Source: a virus (lineage: Duplodnaviria > Caudoviricetes). From it: 64,000 nucleotides of DNA. A model generated the notes under the pieces. That model ran no database searches, was not told the DNA's origin, and was given only the letters and a program-made list of their open reading frames with translations. The position numbers and the translations under genes were made by a program. Below are positions 21,474-50,359 of this stretch, piece by piece (the first letter of the stretch is position 1; each line of letters begins with the position of its first letter). The stretch lies in the IMG/VR virus record IMGVR_UViG_3300045391_005020. One strand, given 5' to 3'.

Positions 21474-22409
21474 TCAGCTCGTTGCGATGCGGACGCGGGC
21501 GACAGCGGCAGGGTTGCCGATCGTGGCGCCGCGCTCACAGTACGCGTAGAACTCCAGGTTGAACGCCTTCTTGTCGACGTACATCGTGGTGTCTTCGAGC
21601 ACGTAGCTCTTGCCGAGGAACTCGGGGCTGGCGAACAACCAGAACTCCGACTCACCGACCAGCTCGTGCTTGTTGGTGATGACCCAGTTGACGCCCAGCA
21701 GTTTCTTCTGCTGGAAGCCGTCGACGAACATCGACTCGCTGAGGTCGCCGCCGGCCGTGTCGCGGCCGAACTTGGCAACATCTTCGATCGTGATGTTGTT
21801 GCAGAGGATCGTGACCGCTTCGAGGTGCGCGAAGGTCCGCTTCAGGATCTTCTTCATCTCGAAGAGCGAGGAACGGGTGATGCCGTTCGCGTCGACGATC
21901 TTCTTGTTCTGGATGATGCCCGTCTCAGGGACGGTCGAGCCTTCGGAGCCGACGATGCTCTGGCACGCGGCCAGCATCTTGCGGTCGAACTCGAAATCCA
22001 TGTCGAGGATCGCGTTGTCCGAGATCACCTGGCGGATGTCCATTCCGTACGTGCGGAGTTCGGACATGTCCTTGGTGAATTTCGGGGTGACGATGCGATC
22101 GAAGTACACCGGGTAGCGGTCGCCGCGGAAGTAGTACTGGATCGGCTGCTGGCCGAGCGGGATCGTGATGGCGGCCGGCGAATTCGGTTCGCGTTCGACC
22201 AGCTTCACGTTCTTGTCGGTGTTGAGCTGCGGGGTGAGTTCGTCATCACCGATCTTCACCGCGGGCATGATCTTCTCGAAGAAGCTGCTTTCGCGGATGC
22301 GGATGCGGGTGAAATCCGTCACCATATCGGCGGCTTCTTTGATCTGCCCGGCTTCGAGCATACCATAAAAAGCGCGGTTTGACTGTTGTGCGCTGACTTT
22401 AGTGGTCAT
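21474..22409 (-). CDS. Major capsid protein (HK97-type fold)
   Basis: 311 aa; protease-scaffold-decoration-MCP-terminator synteny; IRESSFFEKIMP...DNAILDMDFEFDRKML...ERGATIGNP pattern; strongly biased codon use. Confidence 0.75.
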   Translation of the reverse strand: MTTKVSAQQSNRAFYGMLEAGQIKEAADMVTDFTRIRIRESSFFEKIMPAVKIGDDELTPQLNTDKNVKLVEREPNSPAAITIPLGQQPIQYYFRGDRYPVYFDRIVTPKFTKDMSELRTYGMDIRQVISDNAILDMDFEFDRKMLAACQSIVGSEGSTVPETGIIQNKKIVDANGITRSSLFEMKKILKRTFAHLEAVTILCNNITIEDVAKFGRDTAGGDLSESMFVDGFQQKKLLGVNWVITNKHELVGESEFWLFASPEFLGKSYVLEDTTMYVDKKAFNLEFYAYCERGATIGNPAAVARVRIATS

Positions 22410-25032: not shown

Positions 25033-26373
25033 TTAGACACGCAAGTCGTTACTTGCGGCAACAGCGGTTAGGACGGCTTCGTCCGCTCGGTTGCTTGGAT
25101 ATGCAGCGAAAGCCAGCTTGTAATGCAGATACAATCGCGAGAGCCCGAGATGCTCGGCGCGATCGATTGCGATCCCGGCCGACTTGACTGAATCGGCTGG
25201 TTTCATGATCGTGATGCGAACAATTCGAGCCCCGACCGGTTGCGCCTTCATCGACGCCTTCTCGTTCAGCTCGGACGCAGTATCTTCACCGAAGTCCAGA
25301 TTTGACACGTCGTTGTGTCCATCCAGTGAGGACATCTCGGGATCCTGTTCTTCCAGGAGTCCACTGAAGCCGCCCTGCACATCGGGTTCGCCGCACATGC
25401 AGGCCAACTTGGATTGGCCGACGATGATCTCGGTGAAATCCTGGAACGACAGCATGTGACCAGCGCGGTGAAGGGTGGTCAGCACCGCTTCAACTCCGTG
25501 CAAATCTGCTGCCTGCTTGATCTGTTTGACCGCGCGATCCGAAAGCTTCATCGGACCCGCGCCCGACACGGCCTTGCCGTGACCCGCGACGCGCTTCTCA
25601 ATTTCAGCCAACCGGACGAGGGTCGCCTTCTTGACCTGATCGTCGTCGAGCCCGTACGCCTCTGCCAATTCGTGGCCGCCAATCACGCCATTTTGTGACG
25701 CGACCTTGGCCAGCGCGTACCCGATCCTGTCGGCCGGCTTGTAGACCGTGCTGATGTCGAAGTACTTCGGGTTCGGATTCTGCATGTAGATCTGGCGACC
25801 GTCCGCCAGCACTTCACCCAGCTTGGTCTTGATGTGATCGCAGTGGTGGCGCGCGGTCGGGGCCTTATGGCCGCAATAGCTGCAAACGTCGTAGTCCTGC
25901 TTGGAACCCATCGAAACCGGAATGTCTTCACCCCGCGCGAACGCGTCGAGTTCTTCTGCGTACTTCGTGTTGTCGAGTGCGATCAGAAGTTCGATGCGGC
26001 GCATGTCCGGATTGTGGGCAGTCGCCAGCACTTCGCCGGTTTTCAGGATCGGCGAGTGGTTCTTGTGGTTCTTGAAAACGTGACCGTTTTCTTTGAATCC
26101 AGTATGGGCCGTGACATTGTCTTTTTCGCTGAAGCCGTCGCAGTTGCGGTTCGGGCCGTACGCTTCTTCGTCGCCGACCGCGAGCACGTGCAGAACCGAG
26201 TGGCCCTTCACGCCGCCTTCGTCGGCGATCTTCTGCAGAGTCTTGCTGAATAGTCCATCGGCCGCTCGCTTCTCGAGCCAGCCCGCGTCGACGCCGCGGC
26301 GATGCAGCGGAACCAACGCGACGTTAAGATCGTTGAAGTCGTACGAGTCGGTGAGGATCAGTTTGCGAATCAT
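25033..26373 (-). CDS. Prohead (capsid maturation) protease with Zn-finger insert
   Basis: PNRNCDGF...VFKNH...VSMGS...CSYCGH...CDHI...YFDISTVYKPAD motifs of assemblin/HK97-type phage proteases; synteny. Confidence 0.75.
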   Translation of the reverse strand: MIRKLILTDSYDFNDLNVALVPLHRRGVDAGWLEKRAADGLFSKTLQKIADEGGVKGHSVLHVLAVGDEEAYGPNRNCDGFSEKDNVTAHTGFKENGHVFKNHKNHSPILKTGEVLATAHNPDMRRIELLIALDNTKYAEELDAFARGEDIPVSMGSKQDYDVCSYCGHKAPTARHHCDHIKTKLGEVLADGRQIYMQNPNPKYFDISTVYKPADRIGYALAKVASQNGVIGGHELAEAYGLDDDQVKKATLVRLAEIEKRVAGHGKAVSGAGPMKLSDRAVKQIKQAADLHGVEAVLTTLHRAGHMLSFQDFTEIIVGQSKLACMCGEPDVQGGFSGLLEEQDPEMSSLDGHNDVSNLDFGEDTASELNEKASMKAQPVGARIVRITIMKPADSVKSAGIAIDRAEHLGLSRLYLHYKLAFAAYPSNRADEAVLTAVAASNDLRV

Positions 26374-29878: not shown

Positions 29879-32044
29879 TCAGCCCTGCATGGTGGCGTTG
29901 AGGCCGAGTCCGTAGAACTCGGGGTCGCCGGCCAGTGAGCGCTTCTTCATGAACAACACGAGCTCACCCAGGGACTCGAACGAGGCCTTGAGGTCGTCGG
30001 TGAATTCAACCAGGTCTTCCTTGCCGTACCGTTCGGTGAACTCGTCGTAGTGCCAGTGCAGGAGGAACAGGAGGCGGCCCAGGCGGTCCATGCCCGAAAC
30101 GATCGTCGGGAGGAATCGCTCGACCATGTCGGTCGGGTTATGGGTCTTGATCAGCGAGCTCAGGACCGAGGCGTCGAACACTTCCTTCTGGCCGGTCTGA
30201 CTGGCGCGCTGGACGGCTTGGCTGGTCGACTCGGTGTCGGTGTCGCCGTCATCAGAGCCGCCGAACGGCGAGTGGTACTGGTAGAACGCGCGGTTGTCTT
30301 CGCTGGGCTCACGCTCGACCCCGTAGGACGGGAACTTGGTCGTGTGATGGTTCGACATCAACCCGCCCTCGGTCTCGTCGGTGACTTCCGGGAACGGCAG
30401 AAGATTGGCGGCGTACTTGACTCGGTACTCGGTCGGGGCGTCCGCTTCCTTGATCAGGATCTTGGCGTCGTGTGCGGACAAGCCGTGCCGGCGCATCAAG
30501 TAGCTGAGGGCACCGACTTTGGTATATGAGTCAGAACCGTCGAGGTCCTTAATCCCGATCTCGTCGTTCATCTTCCACACTTTGATCGGCGACGCGGTCT
30601 TCTCGAGCTCGGTCAGGATCGTGTTGTGGTCGCCGAAGTCGGAGTGGTGCAGCTGCGATTCCGAGATCGGAGTCTTGTACGAGTAATCTTTCTCAGTGAA
30701 CCGGTTCAGCACGATGGCGCGGAAGCGTCGCTCGTTGACGACCAACTTCTCGGCCAGGTACCGGATCTGACCAGAGCCAGCTTCGGTGACGACAATTTCG
30801 CGCACTCGTTGGTCCGGAGCGCCGTAACGCCACGGCGCCGGGCCATTCAGGACCGACCATGGATGATTGCGTCCGCACCAGTCGCGGGTGATGTAGTACG
30901 ATCCGCGGACCTTGAGGGTCTTGATCTCGTTCACGCCGTCGACCGAGCTGTCGATCTCGAATCCGAGCGTGGAATCGCCGGTCTGATTGCAGAACACCAC
31001 GCAGTCGCCCGGACGGACTTTATCGGGCGAAACCGATTCATCGTCCAGGAGCTTGCGGAAATCCGCGCCGTCGTGTTGGCGCAGCGTGTAGATATGGCGA
31101 GTCGAGACCATGCCGTGACGGCCGCTCGACGGCTCGTACACCAGCATCTGGTCAGCGTCTTCCGCTTTGGTGCCGCTGATGCGGAGAATCAGGCATTCCG
31201 CGATCGAACCGTCGGCCATCAGGACATCGTAGAGTCCGCCCTGGGTTGGGTTCTGGAGAACTTGCGGGACGGTCGTGCGGTACACGATCGACTTGTTCAT
31301 CTCGGGACGCTTATCGACGACGGCGGTTCCGCCCGTGATCAGCTCTTCCTTCTGGGCATCGGTCAAATCCTTCGCACCATCCTGAGCGACCGAGCTGATG
31401 ATCGTGATGTCGTCTTCCTTCTTCTCGGCCGTCTTGGTCGGCACGTAGAAATCGACCAGGTTGTAGAACTGTTCGACGTACGAGGCGAGCTTGGGAAATT
31501 TCTGCAGGTCGCCGATGAAGCCGCGCGCGACTTCGGGACCGAACGATGCGATCGCATCCGGGAGCGACGGCAGATCCGGCTCCATCGTCATGTCCTGCAT
31601 CGAGTGGATCGCTTCACCGCTCTTCTGGAGATTGAGTCCGCCCTGTCCGCCGCCCGGAGGCAGCTGGCGCAGCTTCGAATAGTTCGGCTGACGAACACCC
31701 CGTTCTTGCTTGGACTTGGTGTCGACTTCGCCGAGTTGATTCGGACGACGATTGATGATCTGGTTGACCCAGTCTTCGGTGAGCGGGACGAACAGGTCGG
31801 AGTCGACGCTGTACAGGGCATCGAGGCCCTTGATCTCGCCGTTCATGAAGAACACGGGAGCGTAGTGCCACCCGTCGCCGATCTCGAACCCGAAGATACC
31901 GACCGCTTTGGAACCGTCGTCGTTCGACTTCACCAGCTGGAAGCCGACCAGATAGTCCAGGAGTGCCGGCGACTTATCGCGCAGACGGGCATTGGCCAAG
32001 TCGCTAAAGGTTTGCTCGAGGGCTGTTTGGGCTGCTTCTGGCAT
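29879..32044 (-). CDS. Large putative internal head protein
   Basis: 721 aa; GGAG RBS; K-x-A motifs at apparent domain boundaries (TKTA, EKTA, VKYA). Confidence 0.55.
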   Translation of the reverse strand: MPEAAQTALEQTFSDLANARLRDKSPALLDYLVGFQLVKSNDDGSKAVGIFGFEIGDGWHYAPVFFMNGEIKGLDALYSVDSDLFVPLTEDWVNQIINRRPNQLGEVDTKSKQERGVRQPNYSKLRQLPPGGGQGGLNLQKSGEAIHSMQDMTMEPDLPSLPDAIASFGPEVARGFIGDLQKFPKLASYVEQFYNLVDFYVPTKTAEKKEDDITIISSVAQDGAKDLTDAQKEELITGGTAVVDKRPEMNKSIVYRTTVPQVLQNPTQGGLYDVLMADGSIAECLILRISGTKAEDADQMLVYEPSSGRHGMVSTRHIYTLRQHDGADFRKLLDDESVSPDKVRPGDCVVFCNQTGDSTLGFEIDSSVDGVNEIKTLKVRGSYYITRDWCGRNHPWSVLNGPAPWRYGAPDQRVREIVVTEAGSGQIRYLAEKLVVNERRFRAIVLNRFTEKDYSYKTPISESQLHHSDFGDHNTILTELEKTASPIKVWKMNDEIGIKDLDGSDSYTKVGALSYLMRRHGLSAHDAKILIKEADAPTEYRVKYAANLLPFPEVTDETEGGLMSNHHTTKFPSYGVEREPSEDNRAFYQYHSPFGGSDDGDTDTESTSQAVQRASQTGQKEVFDASVLSSLIKTHNPTDMVERFLPTIVSGMDRLGRLLFLLHWHYDEFTERYGKEDLVEFTDDLKASFESLGELVLFMKKRSLAGDPEFYGLGLNATMQG

Positions 32045-32111: not shown

Positions 32112-34016
32112 TTAGGGCGTCCCGGGCGGCTTCTTTCCGTAGTGGCCGGTTTGAGCCAGGCTGTCGCCGAAGTTGACGCCGCGGGCCAGCGCCGGCACGA
32201 ACGAGGTGCTGTTGGGGTCGGATTCGGCGCCACGCGCGACCGACTTCTGGAACGCACTGGTGGTGTAGAAGCCGGCCAGCTGGGTCTGCCAATCCGGATC
32301 CTCGTGGACGCCCAGTAGGCCGCGCTGCATGTGCGGAGCAAACCCCGGTGCTTCCTCGTGGGTGTGGACGTCCTTGATTCCGTAGCGATGCAAGTGGTCC
32401 GCGATCTTGCGGGTCACGCGAGTCCCGACCGTGTAATGGAGCGCTGGCTCTTCCAGGTAGCGCCCGATGGCCTGCTTTGGTGGCGCCAACGTCGCAGTTG
32501 GGCGCGGCTTATACGCATGGGTGAGCTGGTTATGCGACACGACGTCGTCAACCACGTGGTCGCCGATTCCTTCGTGGTCGGTGACCTTCGCCCAATTCAT
32601 GAGTCCGGCCACGACTGCTTCCAGGTTGCGCCGGTGCGTCGAAATACCGGAGTTGTCCAAGGCCTCCTTGAGGAGGTTGGTGTAGACCCGGCGGGCCTCG
32701 CCGAGGCCGCGATGGTGCACGAGATCGATCGGGTGCGGGACGCCGTCCGTCAGGTCGTCGCCTTCGTCGACCGTGTCGCCCGGTTTGACCGTCGGGTTCA
32801 GGCCGTCGTGCACGTACAGCTTGTGGTCACCAAGCTCGATGTAGTGGCCGCCCTGCGGGGCCTTCTCGACCGACTTGATCTGACCGGCCTGCGGGGCCAG
32901 CGGGCCAGCTTCCGGGAATGACTCAGGAGCCTGAATGAGTCGGTTCAGGTATTCGAATCCGTTGCGGTTGATTTTCTCGGTACCGGTCACACCCGAGGTG
33001 TGCTTGGAATTGAGCATGCCCTGGCTGAGCTTCTCGCCGATCGACTGCGCCGCTGCGATCCCGATGTTGTCACCAATCTTGGAGAGGCCGAAGCGGTCGC
33101 GCCGACCGGCAGCGAAGCGGGAGATCCCGCCGTCCGGCGTCGATTCTGTCAGGGGCGAGTGGATCAGGATTTCGTCGACGCCTTTGCTGTCGAGGTCCTT
33201 GAGCATGTGTGAAGTGAGCGTCGTTCCGGCCGCGAGGACTTTGTCCGTGCCAGGAATCGTGATCGGCGCGGCCAAGACGGCGCCGGCGTTGTCACGGTCT
33301 TTCGGGTGCACCGGAAGCCCGACAGGAAGGCGAGTAGCGTCTGGAGCGTCCTTGGTGACGACGAGTCTGTGCGCCGCGTTGACGAGCTGCTTATTTAGAA
33401 ATCCCGCGTCGCCGACAGCGAACTTCGTGCCGATCATACCGCGACGCTGACCGTACAGACCCGCGAAATATTCGACCGGATCCAGGCCTTGCGCGTAACT
33501 ACGCCAAATCGGGACCGGGATGACTTTGCCGGTGTGGTCGCTGGTCAAGAGATCCGCGCCGCGTAGCGAGTTGTAGTCCGACTTCTTGCCGCGGGCTCCG
33601 CTGATGAGCTGCAAGTAGAATGGATTGTTTTCCTGCTTGGCCTCTTCGAACAACGCGTTCTGGAGATCCTGGCCGAGCGGCAGCAGGGTATTCACCACTG
33701 CGTCGTCTTTCTTGTCGGCCGGAATCCGATCGTCGTCGACGATCTGCTGAATCTTCTGCTTCGCCGCCGCGAGCAGCTTTTCCTTCGCGGGCGAAGTCCG
33801 GAGCGACTTCAGGTCCACCGATGTGCCTTCGTCCCACGCGCTCGAGCGCCCAATGTCGTTGAGCTTCTTCAGCACGTCCTTGTAGCGGTCCGGGTAGCGT
33901 TCTGCTACCTCGCGCATCAGCTCCTGCACACCCTTCGAATCAAGAACACGATCTTCGTTCCGGAGATCTTCCGGAAGCGCGTCGTTGAGCAGGAGTCGGC
34001 CAACGCTGGTATCCAT
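32112..34016 (-). CDS. rpoC: Phage RNA polymerase beta' subunit, C-terminal half (RpoC2-like)
   Basis: TSVGRLLLN, SGARG, bridge helix GLDPVEYFAGLYGQRRGMIGTKFAVGDAGFLNKQL, trigger loop GDNIGIAAAQSIGEKLSQGMLNSKH. Start reassigned to ATG 34016. Confidence 0.9.
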   Translation of the reverse strand: MDTSVGRLLLNDALPEDLRNEDRVLDSKGVQELMREVAERYPDRYKDVLKKLNDIGRSSAWDEGTSVDLKSLRTSPAKEKLLAAAKQKIQQIVDDDRIPADKKDDAVVNTLLPLGQDLQNALFEEAKQENNPFYLQLISGARGKKSDYNSLRGADLLTSDHTGKVIPVPIWRSYAQGLDPVEYFAGLYGQRRGMIGTKFAVGDAGFLNKQLVNAAHRLVVTKDAPDATRLPVGLPVHPKDRDNAGAVLAAPITIPGTDKVLAAGTTLTSHMLKDLDSKGVDEILIHSPLTESTPDGGISRFAAGRRDRFGLSKIGDNIGIAAAQSIGEKLSQGMLNSKHTSGVTGTEKINRNGFEYLNRLIQAPESFPEAGPLAPQAGQIKSVEKAPQGGHYIELGDHKLYVHDGLNPTVKPGDTVDEGDDLTDGVPHPIDLVHHRGLGEARRVYTNLLKEALDNSGISTHRRNLEAVVAGLMNWAKVTDHEGIGDHVVDDVVSHNQLTHAYKPRPTATLAPPKQAIGRYLEEPALHYTVGTRVTRKIADHLHRYGIKDVHTHEEAPGFAPHMQRGLLGVHEDPDWQTQLAGFYTTSAFQKSVARGAESDPNSTSFVPALARGVNFGDSLAQTGHYGKKPPGTP

Positions 34017-34024
34017 CGCGGCCC

Positions 34025-34234
34025 TTACTGTTTGTTGATGATCTGAACCTGCGCGGCCGTGATTCCGAGCTCGCGGCACTGTTGCGCGAAATCTGGCTGA
34101 GCGGCATCGCTCGCAACGATCATCCGTTCATGCTCGTACGCGAGCGCGGCCGGAGTTCCGGCCTCGGTATAGACCACGACTTGGCTGACCGGGATCGTGT
34201 ACGCCCGGCCGTCTTTCACGAACCGGATGAACAT
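34025..34234 (-). CDS. Small hypothetical protein between the RNAP genes
   Basis: 69 aa, tightly packed with both neighbours. Confidence 0.6.
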   Translation of the reverse strand: MFIRFVKDGRAYTIPVSQVVVYTEAGTPAALAYEHERMIVASDAAQPDFAQQCRELGITAAQVQIINKQ

Positions 34235-34864
34235 TTACTCGCCTTTGAGAATGCGATTCAGAACTTCGGCAGCGGCGCCGAGTTTCAGTGGACCGCCTTG
34301 CGCGATCGCTGACATGTCGCCGGGCTGGCCCGAGACGGGGCCGGGCATCGAGGCCGGATCAACCGGCGCAGCCGCGGCTGCGCCGCCAGCGCCTGCCGGC
34401 GGCTGGTTCTTCTTGTTCTTTCCGACAGCGGTGAGGGTGCGTTCCACGATATCCATCACGACGCGAGCTTGACCGTGGTTCACGGCGGCGTTCGGGTCGA
34501 TCGGAGCTTCCGGCTCCGGAGCCGGCTGAGCCGCCTGAGCGGCAGCAGTGGGATCGATCGGTGCACCAGTCGAGGGGTCGATCGGGGCGCCTGCGGCCGG
34601 ATCGCTCGGGGCACCGGCGGACGGATCGGCCGGAGCCGCAGCGGCTGCGGGATCCGCCGGAGCTGCGCCGGCAGCGGCCGGATCACCAGCGAGTTGAGCC
34701 ATCGCGTCCATCGGGGCACCGCCGGCAGCAGCCGGATCTGCCGGAGCCGAGGGAGCGCCAGCCTGAGCGGGGCCGCCAACCGGCATACCGTCCGGACCAG
34801 CTTGCTGCTGATCGGGTTGGGCGGGGATGAAGGCGCGCTTGAGGAGACGTTCGTTGAAGCTCAT
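34235..34864 (-). CDS. Pro/Ala-rich low-complexity internal protein
   Basis: N-terminal LLKRA; repeated (A/I)DPAAAG units also found in the scaffold. Confidence 0.55.
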   Translation of the reverse strand: MSFNERLLKRAFIPAQPDQQQAGPDGMPVGGPAQAGAPSAPADPAAAGGAPMDAMAQLAGDPAAAGAAPADPAAAAAPADPSAGAPSDPAAGAPIDPSTGAPIDPTAAAQAAQPAPEPEAPIDPNAAVNHGQARVVMDIVERTLTAVGKNKKNQPPAGAGGAAAAAPVDPASMPGPVSGQPGDMSAIAQGGPLKLGAAAEVLNRILKGE

Positions 34865-34872
34865 AACTCGTG

Positions 34873-34900
34873 ATCTTAGACCGTAACAATAGACCTACAA
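34873..34900 (-). promoter_or_regulatory. Sigma70-like promoter for 34864 and beta'-C
   Basis: TTGTAG-16-TAAGAT, with CTATTGTTAC half-box in the spacer. Confidence 0.45.
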
Positions 34901-34906
34901 GGTAGG

Positions 34907-37900
34907 TTACGGGTGTAAAATTTTGACTGGGTCGCGGACCGAGATCTCGCCGCGTTTGTAGGCCTTGAGGACATCTTCCTTGGTCGCGAACACCCTGGTC
35001 TGCCGGGCTTTGTCGGGCTGGCTAGCCAGGTACAGGCCGGCCAAGTATTCCTGGCTCGGCAACAGGTGGACGTCGAACGAGGCCGGGTGCAGCAAGTTCT
35101 TGGAGGGCAACAGCTTCTCTTTCGCCTCGTCGACGGCCTTGTCGGAAACCGGGAGGTGGACGTTGATGGCGTCGCCGTCGAAGTCGGCGTTCATGCCCTT
35201 CGTGACCGACTGCGAGATCGAGATGCTGGAGTCCTTATTGATCCGGGCGTGGCCGGCGACGTAGTTGAAACGGTGGAGCGACGGCGCGCGGTTGTAGATA
35301 ACCGGTCGGACCTTCATTTCGGCGTCCAGGTGGTGCTTCGCCGCGGGGGTGCGATCCCGAACGGCCTTCACGGCTTCGGCGGCCGGCGTGCCTTCACGAA
35401 CCAAGCGGCGGATCACGAACGGCCGGAACATCCGCCACGCCATATCTTCTGGGATCCCGACCTGGTCCATGTCGAGCTCGGGATCGATCGTGATGACCGA
35501 GCGACCAATGGTGTCGACCGAGTTACCCAGCACCTTGCGCTGGAACCGACTGTACTTGGGCGAATCCTTGACCCCGATCGCGAACCGGAGCATGCCGCGC
35601 ACGCCCTGTTCGGCCGTCTTGGGATTCACCGGATCCGTGAGGCCAGCGACCGCTTTGGCGGCGTTGTACATGGTCAGGTATTCGTCGCCGTTCTCGCCGA
35701 GTTCTTCACCGGCGCCCTGATAGTTCTTGGCTGACTCCATCAGGTCTTTGTAGAGGTAGTTGGCGTCGTGGATCATGTCGACCCCGCGGGCACGCATAAT
35801 CGGGCGATGCTTCGGAGGCAGGACCGCCATCTTGGAGATCATCAGGTCTTCCGGTTTTACCCCTTGGGTCTTGAGTCCCTGGAGGTACCCGAGACGCCGG
35901 ACCGCGTCATCGCGGTTTGACCGCGATGCAGTTCGGACCTGTTGCTTTGCGAGCTCGATCTCACGATCGACGTTGATGGTCTTGAGCGCGTCCTCGATCG
36001 CTTGCGGGCCCGACTTGCCATTGATCTGTTCTTTGCCAGCCAGGATCTGCTCGAACTTCTTGCCGGTGAGTCCGAGGATGCGCGTGATCGGCTCCTCAGC
36101 CATTGGGTTTGGGATCTTGGCTGGCAGCACGATCTTGCTGAAGCGTGTGCCTTCGGCGCCTCCGGTTTTTCCGAGATCGAACAGACCGCCTTCGACCGGC
36201 TTCATGGTGTTGAAGTCGAACGTGTCGGGCTTCGAGATCTCGTGTTGGGCCAGACGATCCACGTCGGCGTCGGTCATGAAGCCGAGCTGCTGACGACCGT
36301 CCGGCTTGTCCTTGATGTTGACGCCGGCCGAGCGGAGGAGATCGAGGAAGTGACCGTTGGCGAACGATTTACCCTGCTGGGCCGGTGTCTGACCTGTTTT
36401 GAGCTGGCGCCAGAAATCGTCGTTACGCTGACCGCGAACCAGTTTCGCATCCTTGAGGAACTCGGTGGCACCGGCGCTCAGAAGGGAGTGGATGTCGAGG
36501 AGCCCAATTCGCTTCGAACCGTCGGGGCCGCCGCGCGCCGGCGACTCGTCTGCCGAATAGCCGCCTGTGTCGCGTGCCGACATTTTCGACTCAGCAGTAT
36601 GGTGGAGCTTCAGGATGTACTGGTTGCCCGTGAAGACGTTCGGGATCCGGCGGCCGTTCCGCGGATCACGCAACGTTTCCGTCTCTTTGACGCCGTGTTT
36701 GTGGGCTTCATTCAGGGCGAAGTCCGCGAGCCCTTCGGGAGTCGAGAAGGACTTCAGGTTGTAGGGTTGTCCGCGCTTCTCGGCTATCTTGCCGAGCAAA
36801 GTGGTGACCAGGCTGGACGGATTAACGCGCGTGATAATACCAGTCGGGGCCATCAGGACGTCCATCGGGCGACCGTCCTCGTCGTGCGGCATCTGATCGT
36901 CCGGGATGATCTTCGAGACCACGCCCTTGTTACCGTACTGTCCGGAGAGCTTGGATCCGACCGACATTGGCTCGTACGATTTGACCGTGACCTTTACGCC
37001 TGAACGGGTACGGGCCACATCGGTCACCACGCCTGGCTGCGGGTGATCCCACACTTGGCTGATGTCCGTGTAGAGCGACTTCGGCCCGTTGGTGAGCGCG
37101 CCTTGTGCGCGGCCCTGACGTTTCCCGATCGCGACCATGACCGGATCGCCTGGATTTATAGTCTGACCGACTTGGACGGTGCCGCTTTCGTCGAGCTTGT
37201 CGTATTGAGCCTTCGAGAACCGATCGCCGTAGATCGCGCGGTAGTCGTTGGTCTTGGTCGAGTGGACTTCATCGCCGAGATCGAGCGAGTGCTTGTACTG
37301 ATGTTCGCTCGACAGCTTCTTCGCGGCCGATTCAGAGATAGCGACCGAGTCGTCGTAGGTCAGACCTTCGCCAGCCAGGTAAGCAACACGGAGATTTCGG
37401 CCAGGTGCCGCATGACCATTTCGATCAGTGAAGTTCGAGTGAGCCAGCAGCTGACCCGGCTGCACCACGTCGCCAGCCTGGACGACCGGTGTGTTGTGGA
37501 GCATGGTTTTGCGCGCGAGCGGGTAGTGGTTGTAGAGCTCATAATGCTTCTGCTGACCGCCCTCATGGAGGACGTCGATTCCATCCGGTGTCACCTTCAC
37601 GACGCGGCCCGGCGCTTCCGAGTGCACCGCGCCGGCGTGGCTGCCCATCTGCTGGTAGAACGATTTGCCTTCGTGGTCGAGCGGATGGACGAGCGGCGCC
37701 TCCGCATCTTTGAGAGGAAGCGCCTGAGTGGTCATACGCGCACCCATTAGGAGACGCTGTGATTTCACGCCTTCGAGGAGGGGGACCATGTTGGACGCGC
37801 GGCTAAACAGGTGGGTCGCATCCGGGAGTTCGTACTTCACCTTCGAGCGGTCGATGTACTGGATCTTGTGCCCGACCATCGCACGAACTTTGCGTTCGCC

Positions 37901-39313
37901 CTTTGCGAGCTCGCCCGGGAAAGCGATCGCGTGGTTCGCCATCTGGCGCGCCGACAGCGTCTCGAGTTTACCGGTCGCGGGATCGCGGAGCGTTGTGTAC
38001 AGCTGACCGTCTGAGCCCTTGAGGGCCGCGTCGGTAACGCGCATGTCGAGGCCGATGTTCGATGACTCCGGGGCGCGCACGCCATCGATGATGCCGAAGT
38101 AACTCGGCTGCACGCCTCGCGCGTCACGCGAGACAGATTGGGTGGAGCTGATTCCGCCCTCGCCCAGGCGCGTGATTGCCTGACGCTGATCGTAGGTCTC
38201 GAACGGGTTGATGTCTTCGACCGCCGAACTGAGTCCGGTGCGGTACAGTGCGTGTACATTCGGGGTCAGGATGCCGGAACGGAGCTTGTCGAGCTTGCCC
38301 GATTTCGCCGCACCCCAAAGGAGCTTGCGCATCTCGCCAGCCTGGTCGCGCTCGAGACGTTCACGGATCAGATCCTCGGCCGAGTGGACCGACTGGAACG
38401 CTTGCGAGTCGCGGTTGTCGCCCTCTTCCTGGTTGTTCGCGACGCGCAGAATTTTCTGCGTCGCCTTCGTGAGCGCGTCGAGTCCTGGGCGATCGTGCTG
38501 ACCGCCGAGCGTGAGCTCACTGACTTCCGGATCGATGCGGGCGCGGTCCAGAATGGTCTGCAGGGCTTTCGGGAGTTCGTGATCGGGAGCTTCGCGCTCA
38601 GCTTGGCGGCCGAGCTTCTGGACAACCTTGCGGAGATCCTGCTGATCGTGACCGCTGACTTCGCGCCAGTTCTGTTTGAACAGCTGTTCGCCCCAAGCCT
38701 GCTTGAGATCTTCGTCTTTGACCCCCAGCGCTTTCAGGAGTGGATACAGACGCGTCTTTGACTGTTCGACCTGGAGGTTGAACACACCAGTTTCGGGATC
38801 CAGGTTGACGCGGAATCCGCGACCAGTGCCGGGCTTCACGTTCACGTGCGCCTCGACGCCGCCATTCTGCTGACGCCGCACGTACACGCCCGGACGCAAC
38901 CGGGCCTGATTCCTGATCGAATAAGGAACACCGTTGTGAATGAAGAGACCGCGCGAGTTCAGGTGCGGCACGTGGGCCAGCACCGCGTTCTGTTCATCCA
39001 GGACCTGGTTGGTCTTGTTGTCGACGAGTCGGATCCGTCCCTTGATCGCGCGCTGGAGACGGCCGCCTTCCAGGAGAGCTTTCTTTTCGTCAGCACGAGT
39101 CGGATTGTAGTCGCCGTCGTAGTCGGCATTCACCAGTTCGATCCGGTGCGTGTCGTTCTGGATCGGAAAACGTGTTCGAACGCCCTCGAGGGCGTTGTCG
39201 TAGATGGCTTGGCGCTGGCCAGCGACGTCGTCAAAGCGACGAAGCGTGACGGGCTTAGGCGGCGTTACCGGCTTAGGCGCGGCGCCGGATAGGGCATCAA
39301 GAAAGTCGGCCAT
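34907..39313 (-). CDS. rpoB-rpoC: Phage RNA polymerase beta subunit fused to beta' N-terminal catalytic half
   Basis: Beta motifs: APESSNIGL, RLLMGARMTTQALPL, TYDDSVAISE, GSKLSGQYGNKGVVSKI, ILKLHH, GSKRIG, LLRSAGVNI. Then in frame, beta' motifs: GGLFD, VLPPKHRP, RFQRKVLGNSVDTIGRSVI, NRAPSLHR, NADFDGD (35171-35191). Confidence 0.95.
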   Translation of the reverse strand: MADFLDALSGAAPKPVTPPKPVTLRRFDDVAGQRQAIYDNALEGVRTRFPIQNDTHRIELVNADYDGDYNPTRADEKKALLEGGRLQRAIKGRIRLVDNKTNQVLDEQNAVLAHVPHLNSRGLFIHNGVPYSIRNQARLRPGVYVRRQQNGGVEAHVNVKPGTGRGFRVNLDPETGVFNLQVEQSKTRLYPLLKALGVKDEDLKQAWGEQLFKQNWREVSGHDQQDLRKVVQKLGRQAEREAPDHELPKALQTILDRARIDPEVSELTLGGQHDRPGLDALTKATQKILRVANNQEEGDNRDSQAFQSVHSAEDLIRERLERDQAGEMRKLLWGAAKSGKLDKLRSGILTPNVHALYRTGLSSAVEDINPFETYDQRQAITRLGEGGISSTQSVSRDARGVQPSYFGIIDGVRAPESSNIGLDMRVTDAALKGSDGQLYTTLRDPATGKLETLSARQMANHAIAFPGELAKGERKVRAMVGHKIQYIDRSKVKYELPDATHLFSRASNMVPLLEGVKSQRLLMGARMTTQALPLKDAEAPLVHPLDHEGKSFYQQMGSHAGAVHSEAPGRVVKVTPDGIDVLHEGGQQKHYELYNHYPLARKTMLHNTPVVQAGDVVQPGQLLAHSNFTDRNGHAAPGRNLRVAYLAGEGLTYDDSVAISESAAKKLSSEHQYKHSLDLGDEVHSTKTNDYRAIYGDRFSKAQYDKLDESGTVQVGQTINPGDPVMVAIGKRQGRAQGALTNGPKSLYTDISQVWDHPQPGVVTDVARTRSGVKVTVKSYEPMSVGSKLSGQYGNKGVVSKIIPDDQMPHDEDGRPMDVLMAPTGIITRVNPSSLVTTLLGKIAEKRGQPYNLKSFSTPEGLADFALNEAHKHGVKETETLRDPRNGRRIPNVFTGNQYILKLHHTAESKMSARDTGGYSADESPARGGPDGSKRIGLLDIHSLLSAGATEFLKDAKLVRGQRNDDFWRQLKTGQTPAQQGKSFANGHFLDLLRSAGVNIKDKPDGRQQLGFMTDADVDRLAQHEISKPDTFDFNTMKPVEGGLFDLGKTGGAEGTRFSKIVLPAKIPNPMAEEPITRILGLTGKKFEQILAGKEQINGKSGPQAIEDALKTINVDREIELAKQQVRTASRSNRDDAVRRLGYLQGLKTQGVKPEDLMISKMAVLPPKHRPIMRARGVDMIHDANYLYKDLMESAKNYQGAGEELGENGDEYLTMYNAAKAVAGLTDPVNPKTAEQGVRGMLRFAIGVKDSPKYSRFQRKVLGNSVDTIGRSVITIDPELDMDQVGIPEDMAWRMFRPFVIRRLVREGTPAAEAVKAVRDRTPAAKHHLDAEMKVRPVIYNRAPSLHRFNYVAGHARINKDSSISISQSVTKGMNADFDGDAINVHLPVSDKAVDEAKEKLLPSKNLLHPASFDVHLLPSQEYLAGLYLASQPDKARQTRVFATKEDVLKAYKRGEISVRDPVKILHP

Positions 39314-47605: not shown

Positions 47606-50359
47606 TCACGCACTCAATATGGCCGAAACCGGGGCTGGCGTCGGCGCATTTGCGGCCTGTGCAGCGGCCAGGGCTTTCAGGCGCTTGCGGTGCGCACGCA
47701 GGATCACGCGGGCGCGGGCGCGATCGAGATCGCGATAGGGGGCGTTCTGCTTGAGCCCCATCGATCCGTACATTTGTTTGAGGACCTGATCAGGATCCTG
47801 CCAGGACGCGCCCTCGGGGAGCGCCAGATCTGCCGGGGCTTCGGCGGTGTTGAAGCTGAGATTGTAACCGTGCGCGCCGGGTTCGGCGACGCCTTCGGGC
47901 GGAACGTATCGGAGTGATGGCTCGTATGGGGCAGCCGTACCGTTGATTCCCTGCAAGGTCGGGAACCGGAAGCGGCGGTCCTTATCGGGACCGACCAAGA
48001 CTTTGCCTTCCGCATTGAAGTAAAGGTTTTCGGGGCGATCCAGATACGAAAGCGCGTCAGCGGTCTTCTCAGTCGGCTTCTCGATTCGGAGCAGCTTGGT
48101 GACGTGTTGAACAGTATTGGCGGGATCGCGGAAGAATTCGTCGACGTGATGGAATGGAATTCCCGCTGCCTCGGCGGCCTTGCCGTCGTGGTCGTGGGAG
48201 TCTCCGACCATGATGGTGCGCTTCGGATCCAGCCCGAACCGCTTCATTGCGAAGTGGAGCATGGTGGGCGCTGGCTTCAGGACGGATTCGTGCGGCACCG
48301 GCGTGTAAACCACGTCGTCGATGTGCCCGTCCATGAGACCGAGCGTCTCATGCTGGAGTTGGTGAACCATGTCGGGCGTAAGGCCCTTATGTGCACTATC
48401 GGCGTGAGTACTGTGATTCGTCACGCCGATGATGCGCAGTCCTGCAGCCTTCAACGGCTGCAGGGTTTCCTTTCGGTTCGGTAAAATGAACTGACTACCG
48501 ATATTTCGGTAACGACCATCCTCACTCCAGTCTCGTACGGTTCCGTCGAGATCGATTAGCACTGCGGGATCACTGCCCTGCAGGTCTGGCTCGTCTTCAG
48601 CCATTATCGTGGTGCGCGGCCCAGCAGTGATCTGGGCTTTTTCGCCGCGTGCAGCTTCCTCGGCGGGCGAACCCGCTCCGGTCTGCGATGCGACCTTGGC
48701 CAACGACGCATGAACGAGACACAGGCTACGTAGCCTGACATTCTCGTTCACCGCGGCGAGCTTCACGGGTTCCGTGTTGCCCTCCTCGGCGTTCTTTTCC
48801 GCCGCAACGATGCACTCCAGGCGCCGCGCGTTGGCCTCGCGTGCCCAAGCTTGTGCATCATCGTCTATGAGGGATTCCAGGAACTTCTTCGCTTCCGCGA
48901 ATCCGATCCGTTTGAATCCCTCGTTGTCGTCGTGCGTGGTGCCGAGCTCTCCCCCGTCAAGGGCACGGAAGAAGTGTGTGCGCTCGCCATCATACCCGTC
49001 GACCAGCTCTTTGCCTTTCGGCCAAACTGCCTCGACCACGCCAGCTGAGGCGAGGTTGAGTAATTTCCTATCTGCTTCCTCAACGGCTTCCCGGTACACT
49101 GCGCCTTCCGGAGTTTCGCCGTCGTCAATTCCACCACCAGGCATCAAGAGATATCCGTCTTTCTTGATGCCCAAAATTCCCTTGTCGTCGTAGATCACGA
49201 CTTCGCTGCGCGTGCGCAGCTTCGCCGCTTTCGCGGCCTGCTTGGTATCCGGTTCGACGCCCCACTCTTTCATGAGTGCGAGTGCCTGATCTTCCGTTTC
49301 GGTCTTACGACGCGCCATGTTCTGCAGGCGCTGTGTGTAGTTCAGCGCTTTAGTCGTCGCGTTGCGGGCGAGTTCGTGCTTGGCGGCCGTGACGATTGTC
49401 TGTGCGTGTTCGACGGCTGATTTCACGATCCGTCCGAGGCTGTAGCGATCTGGCGCTCCGCCCATTCCGGTCATGAGTTTCCGGTTGGAAGCCTTTCGGG
49501 GGTTTCCACCGGTCTGGGTTTGATGCTCGGGAACGTTTGTGGTTGGCCATGGATCCTTGGGATCTTCGGGTTTGCGGTCGACCGGCATTGTCTTGCAACC
49601 AGCCAGCTTGCCGTGACCAGACATCAGGGACTCGATCAGTTTCTTTTTGCGCGAGCGCTTCCAGAGAACGCCGGCCAAGAGCCCAACGGCGCCTCCGGCC
49701 GCAATACCAGCCAAGCCCCAGCGGCCCGCGTTTACCATCTGGGCGCGGTCGACGTTGAAGCCGAGCGGCATCCGGACGTTCTCGCCGCTTGGCGGAACCG
49801 CGCGGATTCCAATCGCGGAACCGAGGATGCCACCGAGTGTGCCCGCGAACTCAGCACCCATCAGGGGAGCGTTGCGGACGATCCCGTAACGGCGGGCTGC
49901 GTCTTCAACATTCTGGTTCTTCAGGCGTTCACGTAGTTGTGGGTTCGCGTTCTTGAGCGTCTGGAGCGCCAGATTGCGGCGACGCTTCTCGGTCAGGATG
50001 TCGACGGCTTCGAGACCGCCCGCGATCGCGCCTCCCCCGAGTGCGCCCATACCGGCGCCCGAGATGACGGCTCCGAGTGGATCGCGCTGCCCGCCGAAGA
50101 TCAGCCCGAACTTGGACCCAACCCCGAGACCACCGAATCGCGCACCCGCAGCCGCGCTCCCAAGGATGCGACCGAGCCGCGAGTGCTGCTGCTCCTGCCG
50201 GATCTTCGCCAACGAGTCGCGAGCTTCGACGATGTCGGCCGCCTGCTCGGTCGTGGGCTCATCCACGAGCGCACGGTTCGGCAGCACATCCTGGACTTTC
50301 TCGAGGGTGTTGACGAGCGGCGTGACGCCGGTCACGAGTGGCGAAATGGCTTCAGCCAT
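47606..50359 (-). CDS. Multidomain protein: Gly-rich membrane region + Nudix hydrolase + HAD-IIIA phosphatase + degenerate Nudix-like domain
   Basis: Nudix box GGIDDGETPEGAVYREAVEEA; HAD motifs IDLDGT, GVTN, KPAP, VGDSHDHD. Confidence 0.8.
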   Translation of the reverse strand: MAEAISPLVTGVTPLVNTLEKVQDVLPNRALVDEPTTEQAADIVEARDSLAKIRQEQQHSRLGRILGSAAAGARFGGLGVGSKFGLIFGGQRDPLGAVISGAGMGALGGGAIAGGLEAVDILTEKRRRNLALQTLKNANPQLRERLKNQNVEDAARRYGIVRNAPLMGAEFAGTLGGILGSAIGIRAVPPSGENVRMPLGFNVDRAQMVNAGRWGLAGIAAGGAVGLLAGVLWKRSRKKKLIESLMSGHGKLAGCKTMPVDRKPEDPKDPWPTTNVPEHQTQTGGNPRKASNRKLMTGMGGAPDRYSLGRIVKSAVEHAQTIVTAAKHELARNATTKALNYTQRLQNMARRKTETEDQALALMKEWGVEPDTKQAAKAAKLRTRSEVVIYDDKGILGIKKDGYLLMPGGGIDDGETPEGAVYREAVEEADRKLLNLASAGVVEAVWPKGKELVDGYDGERTHFFRALDGGELGTTHDDNEGFKRIGFAEAKKFLESLIDDDAQAWAREANARRLECIVAAEKNAEEGNTEPVKLAAVNENVRLRSLCLVHASLAKVASQTGAGSPAEEAARGEKAQITAGPRTTIMAEDEPDLQGSDPAVLIDLDGTVRDWSEDGRYRNIGSQFILPNRKETLQPLKAAGLRIIGVTNHSTHADSAHKGLTPDMVHQLQHETLGLMDGHIDDVVYTPVPHESVLKPAPTMLHFAMKRFGLDPKRTIMVGDSHDHDGKAAEAAGIPFHHVDEFFRDPANTVQHVTKLLRIEKPTEKTADALSYLDRPENLYFNAEGKVLVGPDKDRRFRFPTLQGINGTAAPYEPSLRYVPPEGVAEPGAHGYNLSFNTAEAPADLALPEGASWQDPDQVLKQMYGSMGLKQNAPYRDLDRARARVILRAHRKRLKALAAAQAANAPTPAPVSAILSA

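Follow-up and report, generated by a model that had tools for sequence, protein, structure and literature searches.

A two-chain RNA polymerase core, beta-beta'N plus beta'C, encoded in the head module of large tailed phages

Polymerase genes and their anatomy

The stretch of DNA analysed here (the window) is 64,000 nucleotides from a tailed phage (Caudoviricetes), IMG/VR virus record IMGVR_UViG_3300045391_005020, and it encodes a multisubunit-type RNA polymerase (RNAP) on two polypeptides, one in which beta continues directly into the N-terminal half of beta' (beta-beta'N) and a second that carries the remainder of beta' (beta'C). The window belongs to a 148,649-bp IMG/VR phage contig with a completeness of ~74%; a 214,858-bp version of this contig is likewise represented in the protein collection. 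An earlier note, made from the sequence of the window without database searches, had drawn attention to both genes. The polymerase features are listed below.

34907-39313, (-) strand: fused beta-beta'N chain (chain 1), a stop-free open reading frame (ORF) of 1468 amino acids (aa), assigned by Pfam, phmmer against the PDB and alignment of the clade
36299-36340, (-) strand: fusion junction, where LLRSAGVNI (residues 992-1000) is followed after ~10 residues by beta'
35171-35191, (-) strand: catalytic NADFDGD, residues 1375-1381, located in the clade alignment
38153-38239, (-) strand: counterpart of rifampicin-binding cluster I of beta, located by alignment with Salmonella RpoB
32112-34016, (-) strand: beta'C chain (chain 2), 634 aa from the ATG at 34016, assigned by Pfam, phmmer against the PDB and the clade alignment

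Chain 1 divides into a beta part (residues ~1-1005) and a beta' part (~1006-1468) that is equivalent to E. coli beta' ~17-553 minus the zinc ribbon. The Pfam beta domains Rpb2_3 (365-422) and Rpb2_6 (589-920) are followed by the beta' N-half domains Rpb1_1 (1125-1197) and Rpb1_2 (to 1399). In the PDB searches, residues 41-1030 align in a single stretch with residues 30-1086 of the 1104-residue cyanobacterial beta, and residues 1096-1465 with T. thermophilus beta' 451-829 and E. coli beta' 174-549; a HMMER match of residues 1022-1047 to Taq beta' 22-47 was obtained independently of the clade alignment. Residues 280-480, searched by themselves against PDB sequences, returned nothing at 1e-5. The position of LLRSAGVNI places the junction at ~36300 of the window. 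There, beta' resumes at the equivalent of residue ~17, its first ~16 residues being absent, and the chain ends at the equivalent of E. coli beta' residue ~553.

For the residue-level anatomy, the clade was aligned with RpoB and RpoC of Salmonella, whose sequences came from a bacterial contig filed in the phage collection under a wrong label. Both double-psi beta-barrels are located on chain 1. In the conservation alignment of 33 homologues, which are 42-72% identical, no substitution occurs at the NADFDGD aspartates (D1377, D1379 and D1381) or at K788 and K796 of beta, the lysines that correspond to K1065 and K1073 in E. coli. The beta-barrel motif YGNKGVVSKI occupies residues 793-802, and the equivalents of H1237 and R1106 are retained. 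The rifampicin pocket differs from that of E. coli by the changes Q513S, D516E, H526Q, R529A and S531T. As resistance is established for these positions of rpoB, the phage polymerase is probably insensitive to rifampicin. A look-alike of the catalytic motif, NADYDGD, is present in the beta N-terminus (residues 62-68; 39110-39130, (-) strand); it is not conserved in relatives and is a chance resemblance.

The beta'C ORF extends from 32112 to 34079 and would encode 655 aa from a GTG, with gene callers choosing the ATG at 34016. The product has the Pfam domain Rpb1_5, and its start, MDTSVGR, aligns with DTTVGR at ~571 of E. coli beta', so that the break in beta' corresponds to E. coli ~554-571. 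From there, chain 2 aligns with beta' from just past the catalytic barrel as far as region H (residues 643-1148 in the case of Streptomyces beta') and contains the F-loop, bridge helix, trigger loop, regions G and H and a clade-specific C-terminus. The trigger loop has no SI3 insert and retains its His. In the window, the fused gene and the beta'C gene are separated by 890 nt that contain two genes.

The architecture put forward in the earlier note is borne out. The Pfam order and the PDB matches along one stop-free frame support its fusion of beta to beta'N in a single 1468-aa ORF, and the profile check of both ORFs found RpoB- and RpoC-type domains as claimed. LLRSAGVNI, which it had taken as the end of beta, ends just before the junction; NADFDGD is on the same chain as beta; and the second gene of 634 aa, described as starting at TSVGR and holding the bridge helix and trigger loop, aligns with E. 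coli beta' from ~571 onwards. The compact enzyme of ~2100 aa with both double-psi barrels on one chain amounts to 2102 residues in two chains. Where the note had seen the beta' N-terminus on chain 1, beta'N is present, but the beta' zinc ribbon is deleted, and chain 1 is thus not a complete beta' N-half.

Spread and composition of the two-chain core

The two-chain polymerase core is real, conserved and abundant. An identical 1468-aa protein and the same gene order are found on an independent Logan assembly of SRR9009773. A relative of the fused chain is encoded on 392 IMG/VR contigs, from which 80 loci were fetched. All 80 have a single, stop-free frame across the junction, from beta through beta'N, with the stop codon no more than 30 nt from the end of the beta'N alignment in 77. 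In 58 of the 66 loci with at least 5.5 kb of downstream sequence, the fused gene is followed on its own strand by a beta'C gene. The same Pfam order is present in more than 120 clusters (90% identity), many of them extended by inteins or homing endonucleases, and a search of representatives at 50% identity returned at least 150 with E-values below 1e-102, nearly all aligned at the C-terminal end of a protein of at least 1400 aa; the best 150 matches in this search were all clade members and thus provided no outgroup. The junction is intact even in variants in which the gene is fragmented at residues ~808 or 933. The earlier note had recognised that the fusion might be an assembly artefact, and with the independent Logan assembly and 80 of 80 loci in one frame an assembly or frameshift artefact is ruled out.

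An unrooted beta'N tree was built from the fused clade, with Salmonella phage Arash and Vibrio phage D69 among its members, from four bacteria of two phyla and from two phages whose beta' is undivided, Rhizobium phage RHph_Y65 and Vibrio phage Va2. It recovers the fused clade as monophyletic (94/94), with RHph_Y65 and Va2 outside. This tree, which covers the bacterial and other-phage part of the phylogeny called for in the earlier note, sets the clade apart from the bacteria and from the whole-beta' phages. Judged by sequence, the phages with a fused polymerase are a distinct and very large phage lineage. Cultured relatives with the same layout are Salmonella phage Arash and Vibrio phages D69, D148 and D181. 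A beta-beta'N/beta'C layout was not described in the open-access full-text literature searched. Whether the layout had already been characterised, a further reservation in the earlier note, thus has a divided answer, as no description was found there but isolates with this layout stand unremarked in GenBank. Clade members were already available as sequences, and in Arash as virion proteins, with the architecture neither recognised nor characterised.

The fused gene is frequently occupied by inteins and homing endonucleases (LAGLIDADG and intein-splicing domains), as in P0009, P0012, P0031, P0099, P0109, P0110 and others, and the Vibrio phages D181 and D148 were counted among the relatives in which it is such a hotspot. 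Some relatives carry extra GNAT acetyltransferase or 2H-phosphoesterase-type domains on this gene. Separately, five records in the phage collection (AFYI01000006.1, AGRM01000005.1, CAKLQH020000005.1, OR844998.1 and OR846602.1) carry bacterial rpoB-rpoC operons. AFYI01000006.1 and CAKLQH020000005.1 are annotated with flanking ribosomal-protein genes, and AGRM01000005.1 is known from the match table alone. These records are bacterial contigs or contamination and, filed as phage, they inflate the number of 'phage' matches to polymerase queries.

There is no Cys among the 2102 residues of the two chains. Fused chains free of inteins also have none in 55 of 64 cases from the IMG/VR loci and in 54 of 65 from a separate set of homologues. 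The Cys content of beta'C is bimodal (IMG/VR loci, including L019-L098, L001 and L002), with none in 49 of 62 chains and exactly four in 8. In chain 1, the zinc-ribbon segment (E. coli beta' ~60-130) is reduced to ~22 residues, and the ribbon is missing from every clade member aligned. Both beta' zinc sites are lost from the window polymerase, as all eight cysteines of the ribbon (C70/72/85/88) and of the second site (C814/888/895/898) are absent. The four Cys in the beta'C of Arash and D69 are exactly the ligands of the second site, which, given the bimodal Cys counts, indicates that this site was lost within the clade.

Head-module context, sigma factor and proposed mode of action

The polymerase genes are located inside the head module, with the portal gene at its upstream edge and the major capsid protein (MCP) gene at its downstream edge. 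The neighbouring features are as follows; the last is given in coordinates of the contig.

47606-50359, (-) strand: 917-aa NUDIX plus HAD-hydrolase protein, just upstream of the portal region, a position kept in relative L010
44776-46623, (-) strand: portal protein, by tblastn to Arash gp204 portal (E 7e-55) and to Vibrio phage D69
39297-40202, (-) strand: 301-aa Cys-free ORF with a 17-nt overlap with the fused-gene start and no family match
34235-34864, (-) strand: 209-aa Cys-free, Ala/Pro/Gly-rich protein, conserved between the polymerase genes
34025-34234, (-) strand: 69-aa beta-rich protein, directly before the beta'C gene (31-sequence alignment)
29879-32044, (-) strand: homologue of Arash structural protein gp218
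25033-26373, (-) strand: homologue of Arash structural protein gp222
21474-22409, (-) strand: MCP, by blastp to Arash gp226 MCP (E 2e-27)
G000:C1:128367-129233, (+) strand: sigma-70-family gene, called form 244 aa, by Sigma70_r3 and r4 profiles

Among the 39 loci inspected, most have a homologue of the 209-aa protein that starts 24-40 nt after the fused gene; these homologues have 215-260 aa, are largely Cys-free and have conserved ends. The 209-aa protein is probably disordered. The 69-aa protein has homologues of 70-82 aa in most of the same loci. Its AlphaFold2 model has a mean predicted local distance difference test (pLDDT) score of 88, with five strands and a helix, and so is beta-rich, unlike the helical omega. 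Fold searches with it gave no significant match; the rows obtained were weak and of Sac7d or FHA type, with E no lower than 0.2 and Z no higher than 2.5. In relatives, 812 nt or more separate the polymerase genes, most often ~980 nt, and the genes are never contiguous. Gene order across the clade thus points to a conserved four-gene cassette composed of the fused gene, the two intervening genes and the beta'C gene, and the two intervening proteins may be extra subunits or packaging partners. At the other end of the fused gene, the 17-nt overlap with the 301-aa ORF suggests translational coupling, and L010 and L011 have an ORF of 246-271 aa at the same position. PHROGs and Pfam searches with ten neighbouring proteins identified nothing but the NUDIX-HAD fusion, and the ESM Atlas gave no usable match for the 721-aa neighbour.

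The lack of Cys extends to a block of genes from 44418 down to 32112 on the (-) strand, in which the 771-, 304-, 219- and 301-aa ORFs, both polymerase chains and the 209-aa protein have none and which is interrupted by two small ORFs alone, of 106 aa (3 Cys) and 69 aa (1 Cys). The portal and capsid proteins have 8 and 3 Cys, respectively. This block may mark a set of internal proteins that are ejected.

The earlier note saw neither alpha nor sigma in the window. This holds within the window, where the sigma region-2 and region-4 profiles have no match, but a sigma-70-family gene is present elsewhere in the contig, ~11.7 kb past window position 1, amid structural genes. Its region 3 and region 4 matches exceed the Pfam cut-offs (Sigma70_r3, 43.7 bits; r4, 24.9 bits), and the AlphaFold2 model (pLDDT 87), which has the domains sigma2-sigma3-sigma4, aligns over its full length with sigma factors in all of the top 50 Foldseek rows. 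The protein is homologous to Arash gp10, with a counterpart in D69. The gene was present in three of three genomes checked, and its family has 108 clusters, with at least nine members from longest contigs equal in size to those of fused-polymerase proteins, so that by these pairings the sigma gene co-occurs with the fused polymerase. The wider search that the note had proposed therefore yielded a sigma gene but no alpha gene, as profiles PF01000 and PF01193 found none in the 148.6-kb contig, with both positive in 14 of 14 control genomes. A second polymerase set was likewise not found in the contig, and the complete Arash genome also has a single match.

Homology, gene context and composition together suggest how the enzyme operates. 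Chain 1 contributes both double-psi barrels, the clamp and the Mg-binding NADFDGD, and chain 2 the F-loop, bridge helix, trigger loop and jaw. The covalent beta-beta' tether may substitute for the alpha dimer as assembly platform, given that a gene for alpha was not detected. Promoter specificity would be provided by the 244-aa sigma-70-family protein of the phage, encoded ~12 kb away. The enzyme would be packed in the capsid and ejected with the DNA, and would then start transcription independently of the host polymerase. This is suggested by the position of the genes in the head module, by the cofactor-free, Cys-free make-up of the enzyme and by homology to Arash, in which both chains and sigma occur in virions; Arash gp206 gave the most spectra in purified virions, above the capsid protein, with 100% coverage, and gp216 and the sigma factor gp10 were likewise detected (PMC10585845). 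As one polymerase set was found, the same enzyme would presumably also serve later transcription. Taken as a whole, the best explanation, to which we assign a probability of roughly 70%, is a minimal two-chain bacterial-type RNAP core that is carried in the virion, sigma-dependent, alpha-independent and predicted to be insensitive to rifampicin. A more far-reaching reading is that this is a third architectural class, a three-protein holoenzyme (beta-beta'N, beta'C and a sigma-70-type factor) that has no need of alpha, zinc or Cys because it is stored in the capsid, passes unfolded through the tail and refolds in the host, with the intervening proteins as packaging, ejection or assembly partners. 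This is tentative, and we regard it as slightly less probable than an even chance.

Several observations weigh against the virion-carried, sigma-dependent core. The functional argument relies on a single related isolate, Arash, at ~30% identity, and its authors caution that enzymes detected by mass spectrometry may be carry-over of abundant proteins (PMC10585845). The clamp-helix tip is ~14 residues and the flap tip ~7 residues shorter than usual; as these are the classical docking sites of sigma, the phage factor may dock differently or act on the host enzyme. In the trigger loop, the equivalents of E. coli M932 and R933 are L and N. The contig being ~74% complete, an alpha-like gene or a second polymerase could still be encoded in the remainder. 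A crude 8-mer enrichment across 73 intergenic gaps gave no promoter-like motif, with noisy gene calls at 60% GC, and the beta'N tree is unrooted and has few bacteria.

The shortened clamp-helix and flap tips also favour a different arrangement, in which the sigma-like protein redirects the host polymerase and the phage core uses another factor, for example a small intervening protein; the conserved disordered and 69-aa proteins encoded between the polymerase genes would be candidates. Set against this are the sigma gene in all three genomes checked and the at least nine members paired with a polymerase by longest-contig size, the presence of the Arash sigma in the virion together with the polymerase (PMC10585845), and the fact that phiKZ-type phages, which have a non-sigma specificity factor, encode no sigma (PMC7598289). 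We consider this arrangement unlikely. Somewhat less likely still is a polymerase that is made after infection, never enters the virion and transcribes only middle and late genes, the signal from Arash particles then being the carry-over that the Arash authors themselves raise (PMC10585845). The spectra of gp206 in purified virions exceed those of the capsid protein, with beta'C and sigma seen too (PMC10585845); in Arash and D69, as in the window, the polymerase genes lie between portal and MCP within the head module; and the clade-wide loss of Cys and zinc sites is not easily explained if the enzyme works in the cytoplasm alone.

Processing is common among head-internal proteins of large phages, and the fused product might be cleaved, by a prohead protease or otherwise, so that the working enzyme had at least three pieces and was phiKZ-like. 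Breaks elsewhere in the chain are tolerated, since natural variants are split at residues ~808, 933 and 1101. The junction is, however, nearly without a linker and is kept even where the gene is broken elsewhere, and gp206 was reported as one protein with 100% coverage, which is compatible with cleavage too (PMC10585845); we judge cleavage quite improbable. That the fusion is an artefact, or the gene a decaying, catalytically dead relic, has next to no probability, given the independent assembly, the 80 loci in frame, the cultured phages with the same layout and the invariance of the catalytic residues over 42-72% identity. The virion-carried two-chain core remains the preferred reading.

If correct, it would define a minimal bacterial-type transcription machine that has neither alpha nor metal sites and still uses sigma, and would help to ask what the alpha dimer, the zinc ribbon and separate beta and beta' chains are needed for. 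It also adds a large, unrecognised lineage, one that a survey length filter would miss, to the debate on the evolution of phage and cellular polymerases. Ejection with the DNA would explain a possible independence of host transcription in these 150-220 kb phages and would make this 160-kDa enzyme a naturally occurring example of a protein adapted to unfold and refold. Should the third-class reading hold, this would be the smallest natural sigma-dependent polymerase of cellular type; it is environmentally widespread and has a cultured, tractable representative in Arash. Arash grows on a laboratory strain of Salmonella, which makes direct tests feasible.

Comparison with known polymerases

The closest cellular relative is the bacterial core (alpha2-beta-beta'-omega), with E-values to 1e-62 for beta chains and 1e-47 for beta'. 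The phage enzyme shares its catalytic elements, and the phage encodes a sigma2-3-4 factor. It differs in the joining of beta to beta', in the break of beta' past the barrel and in having neither lineage-specific inserts (SI3) nor Cys, and no alpha was detected in the phage. Fusions of rpoB and rpoC occur in Helicobacteraceae and Wolbachia (Zakharova 1999; Lane & Darst 2010; both cited in PMC7483510), and as in the phage the C-terminus of beta is joined to the N-terminus of beta' in one polypeptide. In these cellular enzymes, however, a complete beta' is fused, and alpha, omega and the zinc sites are kept. The other half of the phage layout resembles the cyanobacterial and plastid enzymes, in which beta' is likewise divided after the double-psi barrel, into gamma (rpoC1) and beta' (rpoC2). 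Chain 1 residues 1097-1460 match cyanobacterial gamma 183-553 (phmmer against the PDB), and beta'C residues 43-367, in the 655-aa numbering, match residues 6-349 of the rpoC2 product. Gamma is not fused to beta, and in the phage beta' is broken some tens of residues upstream of the cyanobacterial site, in keeping with the earlier note, which had placed the two breaks close together.

Phage polymerases of the phiKZ/AR9 type are also multisubunit enzymes without alpha, with the break in beta' placed after the barrel. They come as two paralogous sets, one of them packaged in the virion; their beta is in two or three pieces, and gp68 or gp226 takes the place of a sigma (PMC7824862, PMC7598289). 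In these phages beta is never fused to beta', and the sequences are far more diverged than that of the window phage, whose beta is undivided and fused, with a sigma gene and a single set detected. The phiKZ/AR9-related YerA41 matches the beta part at E 3e-25 with 24% identity. The mReC polymerases (Weinheimer & Aylward 2020) are more similar in that beta and beta' are phage-encoded, bacterial-like and recognisable with cellular profiles, and come from environmental tailed phages. The supplementary rows compared from that study list a separate beta of ~900-1560 aa and a whole beta' of ~900-1390 aa, and selection required both proteins to have at least 800 aa and NADxDGD to be in the beta' match (PMC7481178). 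Under that length and motif rule, a 634-aa beta'C would not have been picked up. We rejected the fused clade as the mReC lineage, since the mReC rows compared have separate, whole beta and beta' and here NADFDGD is on the beta chain. Moraphages were dropped as a comparison, as there is no polymerase in these phages. With the layout in all 80 loci and at least 150 representatives, and with these differences from phiKZ/AR9 and mReC, the suggestion in the earlier note of a distinct phage RNAP type is well supported.

The same layout is found in Arash (gp206, 1525 aa, and gp216, 606 aa; OQ632216), D69, D148 and D181, with a fused chain of ~1525 aa and a beta'C of ~606 aa. The fused chains of Arash and the Vibrio phages are ~30% identical to that of the window phage over 97% of the chain, and these phages share a sigma homologue and polymerase genes near the portal. 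The spacing of the two genes varies, with nine genes between them in Arash and two small ORFs in D69, and Arash and D69, unlike the window phage, have kept the four Cys of the second zinc site. The Arash proteins were annotated simply as beta and beta', with the fusion, the split and the loss of the zinc ribbon passing unremarked (PMC10585845).

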